DNA of 35,502 nucleotides. It comes from a virus. Lineage: Duplodnaviria; Caudoviricetes. Below are positions 1,051-35,502 of this stretch, in pieces. The stretch spans positions 1 through 35,502 of the IMG/VR virus record IMGVR_UViG_3300020045_007257; one strand, written 5' to 3'. Numbering within the stretch: position 1 is the stretch's first letter; every line of letters starts with the position of its first letter. Below the pieces are notes generated by a model. The model worked only from the letters and a program-made list of their open reading frames with translations. It made no database searches and was not told the DNA's origin. A program made the position numbers and the translations under genes.

Positions 1051-2262
1051 ATGACAGCTACTACGATCAACATGGCGGCAATCCTTAAAACGATCTACCC
1101 GTCTGGCCTTCCAAAAGACTTAACTTATAAAGACAATCCTCTTCTTGCATTAATGGCAAAGAAAGAAGATTTCTACGGTGACTTTGTAAAGGGTCCACTT
1201 AAGTACGCGCCGAACGCTGGACGTTCATCTACTTTCGCAAACGCTCAAGCGAACAACACTAACGTAAAAAACGTTGCTTTCCTTTATGACCGTGCAAGCG
1301 ATTACGCTATTGCTCGTATCAAAAACGAGGCAATCCTAGCTTCTAAAAACAACTCTGGTGCTTTTATTTCTATCCTTAAACAGGAAATGGAATCAGCTCA
1401 CCAGAACCTTGTAAACTCTGCAGCTCAAGCGATGTACGGAAACGAATCAGGCTCAATCGGAAAGATTGCAGCGACTACAACTATTGGTTCTGCAGTAATC
1501 ATCCTTGATAATCCTGGTGATGTTGTTTTCTACGAAGTTGGATACAAGCTTCAATTTTCAGCTACTGACGGTGCTGGTGCTGGTGTTAGAACTGGTACAT
1601 TAACAGTTAGTGGAATTGACCGCGAAGCTGGAACAGTTACTTGTTCAGGAAACATTACGGCCGGAGTAACGGCCGCTGCGGTTGGTGACTTTATCTTCAT
1701 CGATGGAGATTACGACGCTAAAATGAAAGGTCTTGGCGCTTGGAACCCTCAAGTTGCTCCAACTTCATCTCCTTTCTTCGGTGTAGACCGTACAGCGGAC
1801 ATCACTCGTCTTTCTGGATGGAGAGGTGATCTTTCTGCACTTCCAATCGAAGAAGCATTAATCCAAGGTGGGGCCAAGCTTTCTCGTGATGGCGGTAAAG
1901 TAAGTCACGTATTCATGGACTTCGACAAATACGCAGACCTTACTAAATCTCTTGGTTCTAAAGTTCAGTACGTGGACGTAATGGCCAAGGATGCAAACGT
2001 AGGTTTCCAAGGTGTGAAAGTTAACCTTGGTAAATCAATCGCAACTGTTATCCCTGACAGAAACTGCCCTGCTGGAACAATGAAAATGCTATCTCTTGAT
2101 TCATGGTTACTTCACTCGCTTGAAGGCATGCCAATGATTTTAGACATGGATGGATTGAAGCAGCTTCGCGTTTCTAACGAGGATGCTGTTGAAATTCGCG
2201 TTGGTTACTACGCTCAAATCTTCTGTAATGCTCCAGGGCACAACGGTACTTTCTTAATCTAG
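1051..2262 (+). CDS. Major capsid protein
   Basis: 403 aa, follows the scaffold, strong RBS, highly biased codon usage, capsid-like N-terminus (LKTIYP...KDNPLLALMAKKEDFYG), followed by a terminator. Confidence 0.85.
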   Translation: MTATTINMAAILKTIYPSGLPKDLTYKDNPLLALMAKKEDFYGDFVKGPLKYAPNAGRSSTFANAQANNTNVKNVAFLYDRASDYAIARIKNEAILASKNNSGAFISILKQEMESAHQNLVNSAAQAMYGNESGSIGKIAATTTIGSAVIILDNPGDVVFYEVGYKLQFSATDGAGAGVRTGTLTVSGIDREAGTVTCSGNITAGVTAAAVGDFIFIDGDYDAKMKGLGAWNPQVAPTSSPFFGVDRTADITRLSGWRGDLSALPIEEALIQGGAKLSRDGGKVSHVFMDFDKYADLTKSLGSKVQYVDVMAKDANVGFQGVKVNLGKSIATVIPDRNCPAGTMKMLSLDSWLLHSLEGMPMILDMDGLKQLRVSNEDAVEIRVGYYAQIFCNAPGHNGTFLI

Positions 2263-16544: not shown

Positions 16545-16945
16545 GAGTGATCGACTTAATCGTCGTTCACTGTAGCGACTCAGATATTCCGGCCCACGAT
16601 AACATTGAAACCGTAAGGGAATGGCATGTTAAAGAGCGAGGATGGAGAGATATCGGCTATCACTATTTCATCAGCAAGGACGGTATACTTCATCCTGGAC
16701 GAGCTGAAGAAACCGCTGGAGCGCATGTCTCAGGTCATAATTCTCGATCCATTGGAATATGCCTCTCAGGAAGAACTGGATTTACTAGAGAGCAATTCGA
16801 GTCTTTAGAAAAGCTTCTAAAAGATATTTGCAACAGATACGCTTTAGAAAAGAAAGACATTCTGGCCCATAATGATTTAGACCCAATGAAAAGCTGCCCC
16901 AATTTTGATCTCCATAAGCTCATAGCTTCGTGGGACTGGCACTAG
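16541..16945 (+). CDS. Endolysin, N-acetylmuramoyl-L-alanine amidase (T7 lysozyme/Amidase_2 family)
   Basis: IVVHCS, GWRDIGYHY, GAHVSGHN..SIGICL and H.D....KSCPNF zinc-amidase motifs. Confidence 0.95.
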   Translation: MRVIDLIVVHCSDSDIPAHDNIETVREWHVKERGWRDIGYHYFISKDGILHPGRAEETAGAHVSGHNSRSIGICLSGRTGFTREQFESLEKLLKDICNRYALEKKDILAHNDLDPMKSCPNFDLHKLIASWDWH

Positions 16946-17274
16946 GCGGGAGGAGTGGCCAGTACAGGTTCGGAAATATCGCCTTCTGGGTAGTCGTAAT
17001 ATTTCACCCAGTGATCTAAGTTGATGTTGAAAAAATCTAATACTTCTTTTTTGCATCTAAACCATTCACCAGTATGTCTGTGGAAGATAAGCTTTTCGTG
17101 AATCTCTTTCTCGTCTCTTTCTGTGCCTGGGATTATGGCCATCGGAGTAAGCTTGAAAGGGCACCCGATCTGAAGGGCACTGAGTCTTTTTTTAAAGGTC
17201 TTAGTGTGACCAATCTTTAAGAAGGCGGGCTCTGAGTGACAATAAAGAACATAAATCATAGCTTCTTCTATCAT
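16942..17274 (-). CDS. GIY-YIG-like T5orf172/MUG113 domain protein
   Basis: IYVL...LKIGHT....KRLSALQIGCP...EKEIH......HTGEWF. Confidence 0.85.
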   Translation of the reverse strand: MIEEAMIYVLYCHSEPAFLKIGHTKTFKKRLSALQIGCPFKLTPMAIIPGTERDEKEIHEKLIFHRHTGEWFRCKKEVLDFFNINLDHWVKYYDYPEGDISEPVLATPPA

Positions 17275-17285
17275 TAAATTCTTAA

Positions 17286-17539
17286 GGGCGGTGGCTGCAT
17301 GAAAAATCTTCTCGGGGGCGGGAGGGGCGGATTTATCTCGAGAAATGGGAAATATAGGGCTACATCGGGAAACAATAGGAACAGAAGAAAAAGGCCCGTT
17401 TCACTCTAAGTTACTGATAAAAATATGTTTCACAAAACCGTCAGTCAGACTTCGGGTAGTTCTGGCATAAGTTTTTCAAGTGTCCGTTTTCGTTAATAAA
17501 AATACAATACAAATCTCTAGGGGCGGGGCGGGGGACGGG
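17286..17539. mobile_element. Putative attP region: GGGGCGG arm-type repeats flanking a core identical to an fpg/mutM 5' end
   Basis: Non-coding gap directly downstream of the integrase. GGGGCGG occurs at 17315, 17324, 17520 and 17525 (GGGCGG at 17286). Minus strand 17468-17445 reads ATG CCA GAA CTA CCC GAA GTC TGA. Confidence 0.65.
17445..17468 (-). other. First seven codons of an fpg/mutM-like gene (MPELPEV) followed by a stop; candidate att core
   Basis: Direct translation; MPELPEV(E) is the conserved N-terminus of Fpg glycosylases. Confidence 0.75.
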
Positions 17540-18751
17540 TCAAGGACGGCTTTCAGCTATTCTAAAATCAGACATATTCACAACCTTGCTGTCATCTGGC
17601 CCCATTCTTATAGAATTTATGTGGGTCATAATCTTTTCCGAAGTCTCTTTCTGAAACTCCTTATCAAGTTTCGAGTAGTGGTCTGCAAGTTTGATATCCT
17701 TGTGTCCGGTCATTGCAAGAACCGCATCTAAGCCACCAAGTTTCCGGGCAAGTTTCGCCATTCCATGTCTTAGAATGTGAGTCCCTGAATAAGGGAGCAT
17801 GGCAACCTTTTGGGCCGTATTGTAATTCTTGCCAATAACTCCCGCATTTAAGGGAATGCCATTAACGTGAAAAACAAATCCACAGCCCTCGACCTGAAAA
17901 GCTTTTCTTCTCTTTAGAAGAAATATCAAGTCGTCTGTTAGGTAGACAGGTCTAGGCTCCTGGTTCTTTGGATACTCTTTAAGCTTCAAAAACTTCTTAT
18001 GACTATCCCAGACACAAGTCTCCATAATTGTCGCTCTACGATTCTCAAAATCAATTCTGTTCCACTGAAGGCCAGCGGCTTCACCAATACGTGAGGCAGT
18101 ATAAAATTGAAAGAGCGCGAGATCCATATAGAGAGGCTTTAGGCATGAGAAGAATTGCAAGGCCGCCTCAAGTGTTATAGATTTATCCTTAATAGGTTTA
18201 GCTCTGATAAATCCCAACTTGTAATGAGAGCGGTGAATCGGACTAGAAAGATTGTTTGCCTCGGCCTTGAAGTCTTTAGATTTTTTATACCAGTTAAAAA
18301 TGGTCGTAAACAAGTCTAGCTCATTGTCGAGGTTGCATCTTTTCGCTAGCCCGCGCTTGTCGCTATACTCTTCGCTTTTAAAATACTTAACCTGCTCTGT
18401 GATCCATTCGTCTATTTCGTCCGAAGTGATTTCTTCCATTCTTAGATGATCAAGCTTCGCCAGTAGCGAGTATCTTCTAAGCCATACAGCTCGTGTATTG
18501 TCTTCGAGTGTCGGGAAATGCTTCAACTGCATAGCCTCCCAGACTTCACAAAGGGTAGAAGTGGTGTGCTTTTTCGGAACCGCTGAGACTTCACCGTTAA
18601 AACTCGTTCTCCAGAGTCTTGCTTCATAGAGAGAGTCGAAGGTTTCTTTAAAGTGTTTGGCCCCGATTTGGAGCCTTGCTTGATATCTTCCGGTCGCGGT
18701 ATTTTCAAAAATACCTTTGTGCTTAGTGGGCTTATAACTAACTTGCTTCAT
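17540..18751 (-). CDS. int: Tyrosine recombinase (phage integrase)
   Basis: Catalytic R (TASRIGEAAGL), K (YPKN), HxxR (HILRH), H (MTGH) and Y (ADHY); N-terminal arm-binding-like domain (GRYQARLQIG). Start at ATG 18751 has AAGGAG upstream. Confidence 0.95.
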   Translation of the reverse strand: MKQVSYKPTKHKGIFENTATGRYQARLQIGAKHFKETFDSLYEARLWRTSFNGEVSAVPKKHTTSTLCEVWEAMQLKHFPTLEDNTRAVWLRRYSLLAKLDHLRMEEITSDEIDEWITEQVKYFKSEEYSDKRGLAKRCNLDNELDLFTTIFNWYKKSKDFKAEANNLSSPIHRSHYKLGFIRAKPIKDKSITLEAALQFFSCLKPLYMDLALFQFYTASRIGEAAGLQWNRIDFENRRATIMETCVWDSHKKFLKLKEYPKNQEPRPVYLTDDLIFLLKRRKAFQVEGCGFVFHVNGIPLNAGVIGKNYNTAQKVAMLPYSGTHILRHGMAKLARKLGGLDAVLAMTGHKDIKLADHYSKLDKEFQKETSEKIMTHINSIRMGPDDSKVVNMSDFRIAESRP

Positions 18752-18959
18752 TTTCAACACTCCTTGGCGTGTTCCATTTACGGATTTCCTGTGGAATGAA
18801 AGCGAGCCTTTTTCTCTGTTTAAAGTGAGGGATCACGCCTAGTGAGCAAAGATTATAAATAGTCTTGCGCTTAAGGTGAGTGAGTCGCATCACATCATCG
18901 ATGTACCATATTTGAATTTCAAAGAGTTTTTCTAACGGTACACTTTTGTTTTTTGCCAT
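18738..18959 (-). CDS. xis: Excisionase / HTH_17 (AlpA-like) DNA-binding protein
   Basis: IDDVMRLTHLKRKTIYNLCSLGVIPHFKQRKRLAF...IRKW; overlaps the start of int. Confidence 0.85.
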   Translation of the reverse strand: MAKNKSVPLEKLFEIQIWYIDDVMRLTHLKRKTIYNLCSLGVIPHFKQRKRLAFIPQEIRKWNTPRSVENEAS

Positions 18960-29305: not shown

Positions 29306-29692
29306 ATGGAAACTATTGAGATTATTTCTAAGAACCTGATCGCGGCTAGAGGCCGTATGTCTCGGCAAGAGCTTGCTGAGAAGGCGAAAATATCTTATCA
29401 GGCCGTAAGGGATATTGAAGAGAAGGACAGGAACCCATCAATAGCGATGCTTCAAACCTTGGCTAATGCTCTAGGGATTACGATAGTTGACCTGTTAAGG
29501 AGCGACTCAGAGCCAAAGCCGGTAGCTATGCCGGTTTCAAAAACCCTTCAGAAGATGATGAATGTTCCAGATCAGGCATACGACTTCGCAGCAGACATTG
29601 ACCCTGGTCACAAAGTTTGGAGAGATGTTTTAACATTGTTGGGCGCAGCTGCTGAGGAATCTAGGCAGGCAAAAATGACTAAGAAGGCTTAA
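29306..29692 (+). CDS. CI-like repressor (XRE HTH_3)
   Basis: MSRQELAEKAKISYQAVRDIE...RNPSIAMLQTLANALGITIVDL; divergent from the Cro-like gene; no S24 autoprotease domain visible. Confidence 0.85.
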   Translation: METIEIISKNLIAARGRMSRQELAEKAKISYQAVRDIEEKDRNPSIAMLQTLANALGITIVDLLRSDSEPKPVAMPVSKTLQKMMNVPDQAYDFAADIDPGHKVWRDVLTLLGAAAEESRQAKMTKKA

Positions 29693-32356: not shown

Positions 32357-32629
32357 ATGAAACTCAAGGTTATCAACGCCACACTTGGCGAAGCTGTAAA
32401 GCTACAGACAAACACGCTCCACTCATTCATCACATCTAAAAAATCAGATGCGAAAATGCCTATCTTTGAACTCGAGTACGATACAGAAGCCCAGCTTCTC
32501 ATGATCGGATACCAGGACAAGAACGTGATCGCAGTAGGAATCACAAACATTAAGGTGATGGAACTTGAATCGACTTCAGGAACTAGTACAGGAACTCAAG
32601 CAGCGGGAACTGGCAAGAAATCTAAGTAG
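32357..32629 (+). CDS. Hypothetical protein
   Basis: AAGGA RBS; 3' end overlaps terL. Confidence 0.5.
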   Translation: MKLKVINATLGEAVKLQTNTLHSFITSKKSDAKMPIFELEYDTEAQLLMIGYQDKNVIAVGITNIKVMELESTSGTSTGTQAAGTGKKSK

Positions 32630-33971
32630 CATTAGCTTTGTTGATGAAAGGTTTCCCAAGCAAAAAGAACTCATACTTGATACCGCAAGGTTTCAAGCGT
32701 GGAACTGTACCCGAAGGGGTGCCAAGTCCACGTCATTCGCAAGAAAGGTTTTAAAGAAGCTACATGAGAATCCAGGACACGACGCAATTTACGCCGCTCT
32801 CACACTCGATTCTGCTAAGAAGATTCTTTGGAAGCCCCTTGTCGAGGTATTGGAGGCCAACTCAGTCCCATATATCGGGTATGAGCGAGAAGGCGTTATC
32901 AAGCTTCGGAATGGAACTGGCGATCGCGGTCTATCTAATTGCTCGACTCTCTCCATGTTCGGAGTCAATTCTAACTATAAAGAAATGGCAAAAATTCTTG
33001 GGCAAAAGATTTCCATGGTCGGGATCGACGAGGTCGGATCAATGACGATCGACATGGTTGAGCTTTGCTACCAGAAGATTAAGCCGGCACTCTCAGATTT
33101 GCAGGGTGAGCTCATTATTCTTGGGACATGTGAAAACATTCCTAACACGTTCTTTGAGAAGGTGATTAAAGGCATCGAGGATATGGCGGCGCTATGGAAG
33201 GTTCACGTCTGGACCACTTACGACAATCCTTACATGGCAAAGATTCATCATCAAGAAATGGAAGATGCTAAGAAGATTAACCCGAATGTGGTGCATGCCT
33301 CATGGTTCAGAACCCACTACTTAAACGAATGGTGCTCAGACGATACGAAGCTCATCGTTAAAATGATGGATCACTCATCTTGCGACTTCAAAACTCTTGA
33401 AAACTACCACTATGTATTAGGAGTCGATCTTGGGTTTAACGATTCTTGTGCTTATGCAGTCCTTGCTTACTCAAGTCGCGATCCTTATGGCTATGTTGTC
33501 ACCACGTCTAAACATAAAGGGCAAGACATCACTGATACCGCGAATACTATTCGCAATCTTATGTCTAAATATCCTATCTCTCGCGTGGTTGTGGATGGAG
33601 CTAATAAGCAAGGGGTAGAGGAGATGAGAAACCGGCACCGTCTTCCACTTGATGCCGCTGACAAGCAAGACAAGGCTACCTTCTTAAAGCTTATGGCTGA
33701 CGATATCAAGCAAGGCAAAATCAAATTATTCCCAGATACAAAACAACTCAAGGACGAGTGGGCAATGCTCCAATGGAAGGACGAGTACCAGGACACCGAG
33801 GATGAGCGGTGTGAGAACCATCTGTCAGACGCAACTCTTTACGCGTGGAGATTCATTCGGAACTTCATGTATCGACAACCAATTGAGCAGCCAGAATACG
33901 GCACTAAACAATATATGGACGACTACGCAAAACAACTACAGAAACGAAAGGCGGCAAGACATGACTACTGA
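32565..33971 (+). CDS. terL: Terminase large subunit
   Basis: Walker A TRRGAKST, Walker B VGIDEVG, coupling motif LGT, nuclease LGVDLGFND and HLSDATLYAWR. Confidence 0.92.
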   Translation: MNRLQELVQELKQRELARNLSSISFVDERFPKQKELILDTARFQAWNCTRRGAKSTSFARKVLKKLHENPGHDAIYAALTLDSAKKILWKPLVEVLEANSVPYIGYEREGVIKLRNGTGDRGLSNCSTLSMFGVNSNYKEMAKILGQKISMVGIDEVGSMTIDMVELCYQKIKPALSDLQGELIILGTCENIPNTFFEKVIKGIEDMAALWKVHVWTTYDNPYMAKIHHQEMEDAKKINPNVVHASWFRTHYLNEWCSDDTKLIVKMMDHSSCDFKTLENYHYVLGVDLGFNDSCAYAVLAYSSRDPYGYVVTTSKHKGQDITDTANTIRNLMSKYPISRVVVDGANKQGVEEMRNRHRLPLDAADKQDKATFLKLMADDIKQGKIKLFPDTKQLKDEWAMLQWKDEYQDTEDERCENHLSDATLYAWRFIRNFMYRQPIEQPEYGTKQYMDDYAKQLQKRKAARHDY

Positions 33972-35026: not shown

Positions 35027-35306
35027 TGAGAGGGAATACGATTACGCCGCCGACGAAGCGATGGCTGTGGGACGATTCTTCCGCAGCAAGTTCTCTCCGC
35101 TTGCCGCCCTTATGATGAATACGGCGACCGGCAGAACGGTAGGGCGCGATGAGGTAACGCCTGCACAAATCATCTACGACAACTCCGTTACACTCTCATT
35201 GAGAGATGTTTCGGATGCCGTTGAGGTACAAGGATTCATGAAGGGTGGAGCCATGTGGCTGACCTCCCTATTTGGGGTCGGCATGAACACCTACGAAGAT
35301 AACTAG
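35027..35306 (+). CDS. C-terminal fragment of an unrelated (probably phage) protein on foreign higher-GC DNA
   Basis: RFFRSKFSP...N.ATGRT.G...FGVGMNTY resembles C-termini of large phage virion proteins; GC is visibly higher from about 35030 to the end. Confidence 0.4.
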
Positions 35307-35502
35307 CGCCCCCACGGCCGGTTCCGAATAGCATCCAGCTGCCGATTGCCTTCAATCTGTTGCAGCGTGTTGTTGAGTTGGCGAATCTCAAACGCCTCAT
35401 CGCCGTAGTACCCGCCGCCGTAAACAGGACGCCCATAGTACGGTCGCGGCGCAACGTATACCGGCGCGGCGGTCCAGTTGAGAATGCGGGCGCCAGTGAT
35501 CG

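Follow-up and report, generated by a model that had tools for sequence, protein, structure and literature searches.

The window, by which we mean the whole 35,502-nt stretch of viral DNA analysed here (35.5 kb), carries capsid, terminase, lysin and repressor genes. A 406-residue integrase is encoded on its minus strand (17540-18760), and 71 nt past the stop codon of this gene the same strand begins to read ATG CCA GAA CTA CCC GAA GTC TGA (17468..17445), that is, MPELPEV followed by a stop, as the initial annotation had reported. Pro2 and Glu3 of Fpg/MutM are the catalytic residues of the enzyme. A degenerate MPELPEV-coding pattern has this single match in the window, even with 2 mismatches allowed, and matched none of 100 shuffled sequences. 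The features of the attachment region and of the phage are listed below.

1051..2262, plus strand: major head protein, closest (50% identity) to one encoded in G066, a genome bin of Bacteriovoracales.
17315..17333, minus strand: C-rich repeats located about 135 nt away from the core in the far arm, with a similar position in L198, L278 and L280.
17407..17419, minus strand: full match to the IHF consensus, TATCAGTAACTTA, in the far arm.
17445..17468, minus strand: copy of the mutM 5' end in attP (MPELPEV-stop), whose first 21 nt match real mutM alleles.
17452..17456, minus strand: putative crossover or overlap region, mutM +13..+17 (CCCGA), possibly extending to +11, from junction pairs and stub conservation.
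17457..17468, minus strand: codons 1-4 (Met-Pro-Glu-Leu, including Pro2 and Glu3), which by junction comparison would be donated by the phage to mutM at attR.
17469..17539, minus strand: integrase-side arm of attP, which would become the upstream region of mutM after integration.
17477..17489, minus strand: IHF-like site at -21..-9, matching 6 of 9 consensus positions.
17520..17541, minus strand: C-rich direct repeats, likely arm-type Int sites, with similar CGCCC repeats in the three nearest relatives.
17540..18760, minus strand: tyrosine integrase of the mutM-targeting clade (PHROG integrase, E 9.8e-36).
18738..18959, minus strand: HTH_17 protein, likely the excisionase, with a homologue upstream of the integrase in most related loci.
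29306..29692, plus strand: repressor-like regulator by annotation, in keeping with a temperate phage.
32565..33971, plus strand: terminase large subunit, by annotation.

The attachment site is located in the middle of the genome with phage DNA on both sides, and the window therefore represents an excised form. It is probably incomplete, as no terminal repeat was found in it and no portal was called with the PHROGs. The last 400 nt (35100-35502) look more G+C-rich, possibly a chimeric end or a sign of incomplete assembly. Just past the far attachment arm there is a small nuclease-like gene of the T5orf172/MUG113 type, both in the window (16942-17274) and in a prophage of genome G001 (L278:1871-2311).

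The initial annotation had expected host mutM alleles to match the stub at the nucleotide level, and they do: its first 21 nt open full mutM genes in Bacteriovoracales (L134, L316, L345, L375, L381, L390 and L424, among others). The host of the phage is likely a member of this order. No close structural relative of the window phage was found integrated at mutM, capsid matches being present in 2 of 238 genomes.

The MPELPEV motif alone is not diagnostic, because it was also matched in 120 viral-contig loci with this integrase family absent from the flanks of all of them (flanks of 3 kb at 80 of the loci and of 300 nt at the other 40). Among these loci, a search with the HMM of this family only gave 0 matches for independent mutM targeting. 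The abundance of such matches is what would be expected if the stub were a chance match, or the relic of a lost phage fpg gene, with no tie to integration. However, the core occupies a fixed place after the integrase throughout the clade, and attL/attR pairs flank a whole prophage (see below), which makes this explanation extremely improbable. The identity of the att site rests on the integrase context and not on the motif; from that context, the stub is predicted to lie in the attP of a temperate phage.

The clade was defined from 130 distinct integrases (including that of the window) in genome, viral and metagenome loci, 9 of which have less than 200 nt of downstream sequence. A scan of viral contigs gave no locus with a single protein as query and one with an alignment. 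The homologues carry PF00589 (Phage_integrase), and residues R221, K262, H325, R328, H350 and Y359, which we take to be the tyrosine recombinase catalytic residues of the window integrase (R-K-H-R-H-Y), are invariant across 53 aligned sequences. The core is found within 300 nt of the integrase stop codon in 116 of the 120 relatives with at least 200 nt downstream, continuing into mutM in 82 cases and into a stub in 34; three of the four exceptions have a core farther downstream. A viral contig (L198/L199) has the same attP layout as the window. The proposal that the stub is the attP core is thus supported across the clade, which shares this locus and this core. All the named homologues are from Bacteriovorax or Bdellovibrio, and nearly all of the 77 genome loci with the integrase are titled Bacteriovoracaceae or other Bdellovibrionota. 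One contig titled Sulfitobacter (L176, G005), with a mutM of the Bacteriovoracales type and an array, is probably mis-binned.

The target gene is a true Fpg/MutM. One such protein (P0122) has the N-terminal glycosylase domain, the H2TH domain and the zinc finger (three Pfam domains), and it aligns over its full length with MutM in the PDB (E 3e-36). The gene is present in 202 of 238 Bacteriovoracales genomes; the 5' regions of 150 were fetched, and 140 were scorable, 10 being cut or too short. With adjacency defined as an integrase end less than 450 nt upstream of mutM on the same strand, a clade integrase lies directly upstream of 59 of these 140 genes (42%). At one locus (L170:1392) the ORF that follows the core is Fpg-like but has 209 residues and differs from the usual mutM; it might be a paralogue serving as the target, or result from faulty assembly. 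Five mutM genes (L350, L351, L397, L420 and L421) have G at +15 and no adjacent clade integrase, and may be integration-resistant attB variants.

A sample of 401 genomes across the phylum gave 20 further Bdellovibrionota integrases. All 10 of those with 45-55% identity precede mutM, and 9 of the 10 with 30-35% identity precede tRNA genes. In a quick tree of 45 rows, rooted at the midpoint, the two groups are separated with an SH-aLRT of 100. A one-time change of target from tRNA to mutM is therefore plausible, in a direction that the tree does not fix. A tRNA target for the mutM clade itself was rejected: of the first 78 loci scanned, 60 lacked any tRNA or tmRNA gene. There is a likeness (CGAAC..CCCGA) between the mutM 5' end and the reverse complement of the T-arm that the sister integrases hit in tRNA genes, as seen just past the integrase in L466, L468 and L474 in comparison with window positions 17452-17465; the mutM version is one base longer. 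This likeness is a possible route for the target shift. From these loci, the integrases form a Bdellovibrionota tyrosine-integrase clade whose target, by sequence, is the first 17 bp of mutM.

The window integrase groups at an SH-aLRT of 99 with three others, those of L198/L199, of an island in G002 and of the G001 prophage. In G001, a 36.3-kb prophage with portal, capsid, terminase, repressor and integrase genes lies between cores at C1:46821 and 83146, and the second core is the start of a full-length mutM. It has four small genes in common with the window, and the structural genes are not shared. This is the arrangement that had been predicted, an integrase homologue directly upstream of mutM with a second stub one prophage length away. 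Together with the junction pairs described below, it indicates that integration rebuilds the full mutM ORF behind element DNA and leaves the stub at the far junction.

Other elements are stacked at the site. Two further units upstream of the G001 prophage, a 13.3-kb element and a segment of 3.5 kb, are each delimited by a core, and hence accreted in tandem. The 13.3-kb element is satellite-like (L277:8504-20000 and L278:1-1822), with Prim-Pol/DUF927, resolvase, reverse transcriptase, DUF4145 and DUF5677 genes. The 11.4-kb island of G002 (L280:6495-17930) carries a CD-NTase, a SMODS-associated NUDIX gene and a HEPN gene, and its integrase has the highest best-segment identity to that of the window among the genome loci (62%). 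As judged from these loci, the mutM site is an order-wide hotspot for prophages, satellite-like elements and defence islands. In G008 (L438:2980-3150), three degenerate cores located 54 and 86 nt apart are probably the scars of deleted elements.

The position of strand exchange was examined in 40 pairs of adjacent junctions, drawn from 26 contigs with at least two cores, the arrays being partly fetched. The two junctions differ at +1 in 8 pairs, +3 in 17, +6 in 22, +9 in 5, +10 in 8, +12 in 4 and +18 in 30. They differ in none of the 40 pairs at +13..+17, where four of the five positions are fixed by the search pattern; the free position, +15, has one variant, which is common to both junctions. 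Conservation of the stubs stops directly after +17. Strand exchange is therefore likely to take place between +10 and +18, with strict identity over 5 bp (+13..+17), possibly over +11..+17, the symmetry centre not being fixed by the comparison. In lambda-like systems the overlap is 6-8 bp long and lies between inverted core-type sites. The initial annotation had placed attB in the first ~20 bp of mutM; the mutM 5' end stands as the site, and the length is reduced to the roughly +13..+17 that are strictly shared. With a crossover near +13..+17, the element would supply codons 1-4 of mutM at attR, including Pro2 and Glu3. In two near-identical elements (L154 and L160), host-specific bases at +6 and +10, to the left of the presumed crossover, are common to both junctions. 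A crossover at +13 does not explain this sharing, and gene conversion or longer branch migration might be considered.

The C-rich repeats in both arms, together with the IHF-like sites, suggest a lambda-like attP of about 230 bp. An IHF-like score of at least 6 at -21..-9 is found in 43 of 59 integrase-adjacent arms and in 11 of 81 other mutM upstream regions. A Shine-Dalgarno (SD)-like motif precedes mutM in 46 of the 59 arms (5.7 in shuffles); it overlaps with the IHF-like site, and its AGG may therefore be kept for recombination alone. Promoter-like sites are present in 23 of the 59 arms (shuffle mean 13, maximum 19), 7 of them near -40. The integrase-side arm of the window phage (17469..17539) has neither an SD-like nor a promoter-like match, and a strict promoter-like match is also absent in its three nearest relatives. 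As a result, mutM expression may be reduced in a lysogen of the window phage. No terminator-like site was found on the minus strand between its integrase gene and the core, making read-through the likely source of mutM transcription for this phage. AGGTTA at -14..-9 was tried as the -10 box of a leaderless mRNA and rejected, as TANNNT occurs there in 7 of 59 arms and in 10.6 in shuffles. In four integrase-free loci (L326, L328, L333 and L370), extended -10-like motifs a few nucleotides before the mutM ATG suggest leaderless transcripts.

These features are consistent with the following mechanism. Integration of the phage would take place at about mutM +13..+17, by lambda-like recombination, with Int, the arm sites, IHF and the HTH_17 protein taking part. 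The element would donate its own start codon and codons 2-4, rebuilding the mutM ORF behind element DNA, and the native upstream region of the host would end up facing the short stub. Transcription of mutM would come from an arm promoter in some clades or from xis-int read-through, and the level of MutM would change once an element has integrated or the mutM-proximal one has been excised.

The 59 integrase-adjacent mutM genes were found by alignment, without use of the motif. In all of them codons 2-7 encode PELPEV, the element-derived codons 2-4 varying synonymously only, and the mutM ORF is at least 260 residues long in 72 of 73 complete loci. The next gene is convergent in 40 of 68 loci and its identity is not conserved, so there is no operon of the SpyCI type to silence. 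An unconserved upstream neighbour was considered as a sign of repeated replacement and set aside as weak, the downstream neighbours being equally unconserved.

The initial annotation had proposed that integration and excision toggle 8-oxoG repair on and off. In this explanation, integration of the window phage cuts mutM from its promoter and supplies none, so that lysogens would be mutators poor in 8-oxoG repair until excision. The bare arm of the window phage and the lack of strict promoter-like matches in its three nearest relatives are in line with it, as is the precedent of SpyCI, going by the available text of PMC4129442. In addition, integration would displace the extended -10 found just before the ATG of some integrase-free mutM genes (4 of 63 by pattern, 0.3 in shuffles). 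However, the site is occupied in 42% of scorable genomes and the mutM frame is nevertheless unbroken in 72 of 73 loci, which is evidence against a plain off-switch; Pro2-Glu3-Leu4 are kept in element-derived sequence with synonymous change only, and the gap from integrase to core would permit read-through. We consider the toggle quite unlikely. The intact frame, the SD-like motifs and the promoter-like sites favour restoration with retuning instead, and mutM is probably rebuilt, and likely retuned, by elements of this clade rather than silenced.

The start codons of mutM bear on this retuning. Those of the 59 integrase-adjacent genes are ATG (37), ATT (9), GTG (5), TTG (5) and ATC (3), and those of the 81 genes with no adjacent integrase are ATG (55), GTG (11), ATT (8), ATC (4) and others (3). 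An ATT or ATC start is thus found in 24 of 140 Bacteriovoracales mutM genes (L285-L434), all 24 with an SD-like motif, and such genes may be mis-annotated or called without the catalytic N-terminus. The similar frequency in the two groups (12 of 59 and 12 of 81) indicates that these starts are not specific to current lysogens, and the idea of an element-only downgrade was dropped. The 18 integrase-free genes with an arm-like upstream score contain only 2 of the 12 integrase-free ATT/ATC alleles.

Fpg requires Pro2 at its N-terminus. In all 12 integrase-adjacent ATT/ATC alleles an in-frame stop is reached after 5-7 open upstream codons with no canonical start among them, and these alleles must therefore initiate at AUU or AUC, or be null. 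An in-frame canonical start is present in 5 of the 12 ATT/ATC alleles with no adjacent integrase. A control N-terminal motif, presumably glmS-like, has an ATG start in all of its 144 matches and an ATH start in 0; ATT is therefore not a freely used start in these hosts.

Start codons cluster on the integrase tree (20 changes, with a shuffled mean of 37.8), a signal that near-copies inflate. More than one start codon occurs within 16 of 26 arrays, one of them a degenerate-scar set, and integration or excision would therefore change the mutM initiation region. The junction starts of G001 are, towards mutM, ATG, ATG, ATT and GTG; G010, G013, G021 and G045 have ATG at the farthest fetched junction and ATT or ATC at mutM.

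All of this could have no phenotype. The site would then be a neutral one, with a conserved attB, fully restored expression and start-codon differences of no consequence, by the same logic as that proposed for dusA-associated integrases in the parts of PMC4482086 available. The mostly convergent gene after mutM, the SD-like motif in all 24 ATT/ATC alleles and the occurrence of such alleles away from an integrase would fit. However, AUU/AUC initiation in E. coli is reported as 1-2% of that at AUG (10.1101/063800, in its accessible portion), and both the control motif and the 12 alleles with no in-frame canonical start argue in the opposite direction. A neutral site is therefore unlikely, and retuning is the preferred reading. 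In its strongest form, which is possible though tentative, the arrays would be a magazine of mutM initiation regions. The mutM-proximal element would set the start codon, ribosome-binding site and promoter, acting as a rheostat on 8-oxoG repair and on the G:C to T:A rate across a predatory phylum, with AUU/AUC starts giving up to ~50-100-fold less MutM, possibly under IF3 regulation.

Weak starts are known from infC and pcnB of E. coli (AUU; 10.1101/063800) and from sigR of Streptomyces, an oxidative-stress gene whose GTC start confers IF3 control according to the available text of PMC5472188. The mutM start codon differs from these in arriving on a mobile element.

The closest parallel is with the dusA-associated integrases (Farrugia et al. 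2015, PMC4482086). As described in the accessible part of that paper, one integrase family is found on prophages and islands, the 5' end of a housekeeping gene is replaced by element sequence, and the old 5' end bounds the island. The function of dusA is argued there to be restored after insertion, and the ORF is likewise restored by an element 5' end at mutM. The present clade is set apart by its target, mutM in Bdellovibrionota and not dusA, dusB or dusC. Moreover, the replaced mutM codons include both catalytic residues, whereas the replaced dusA residues are reported, in the same portion, as non-binding for cofactor and tRNA. Tandem arrays and start-codon exchange are seen here, and the words 'tandem' and 'start codon' are absent from the main text of PMC4482086. 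As to an element promoter of the kind described for the dusA-associated integrases, promoter-like sites occur in 23 of 59 mutM arms (shuffle mean 13) and in the window phage there is none.

The likeness to SpyCI, which the initial annotation had drawn, holds for the 5' end of a repair gene as the target and does not extend to operon silencing, with no conserved co-oriented gene downstream of mutM. SpyCI, which is characterised by excision in step with growth phase and a mutator phenotype, is an island with phage-like features and not a complete phage. At mutM, capsid and terminase are encoded both by the window phage and by the G001 element, and the other elements are island-like. Within the available text of PMC4129442, SpyCI of Streptococcus pyogenes hits the 5' end of mutL with a possible effect on mutation rate, cuts mutL, downstream of mutS, from the operon promoter, silences downstream genes and forms a measured mutator switch; one SpyCI rescues expression with an element promoter. 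In comparison, mutM mostly stands alone, the pathway is 8-oxoG base excision, and full phages are involved.

The nearest relatives found, the tRNA-targeting tyrosine integrases with 30-35% identity, have the same layout of integrase, arm and target. In their case the element donates a tRNA 3' end; in the present clade it contributes a 5' end, the site being the start of a protein. Lambda-like attP features recognised by sequence match are the arm repeats, the IHF-like sites and the HTH_17 gene, and the core adjoins the integrase gene and is duplicated at both ends of integrated copies. A mobile element in mutS of Vibrio is reported to cause hypermutation, interrupting the gene until excision. 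Both it and the present elements sit in a repair gene with a link, for mutM a possible one, to mutation rate, but integration at mutM restores the ORF.

No description of a mutM-targeting integrase was found in a full-text literature search; Mageeney et al. 2020 (NAR) or TIGER/Islander may list mutM. The available portions of PMC12642874 and PMC5760749 contain no mention of this target ('fpg', 'glycosylase'), nor do the main text of 10.64898/2026.09.08.750204 and one supplement of PMC12884075. Halobacteriovorax marinus has a mobile-element hot spot, as stated in the accessible text of PMC5760749.

These observations name a major hotspot for integration in Bdellovibrionota, with an element present in 42% of the scorable genomes of Bacteriovoracales, and the mutM site predicts the host order of the window phage. 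They point to a gene-preserving integrase/att pair for predatory bacteria, with a very conserved attB, and to a host repair enzyme whose start codon and two catalytic residues would be carried by a mobile element. If the arrays do act as a rheostat, stepwise excision in G001 would move the mutM start from GTG to ATT to ATG. If swaps of start codon and promoter change MutM, element-controlled mutation rate would extend from mismatch repair to base-excision repair, and the control would be graded rather than on/off, at the level of translation.
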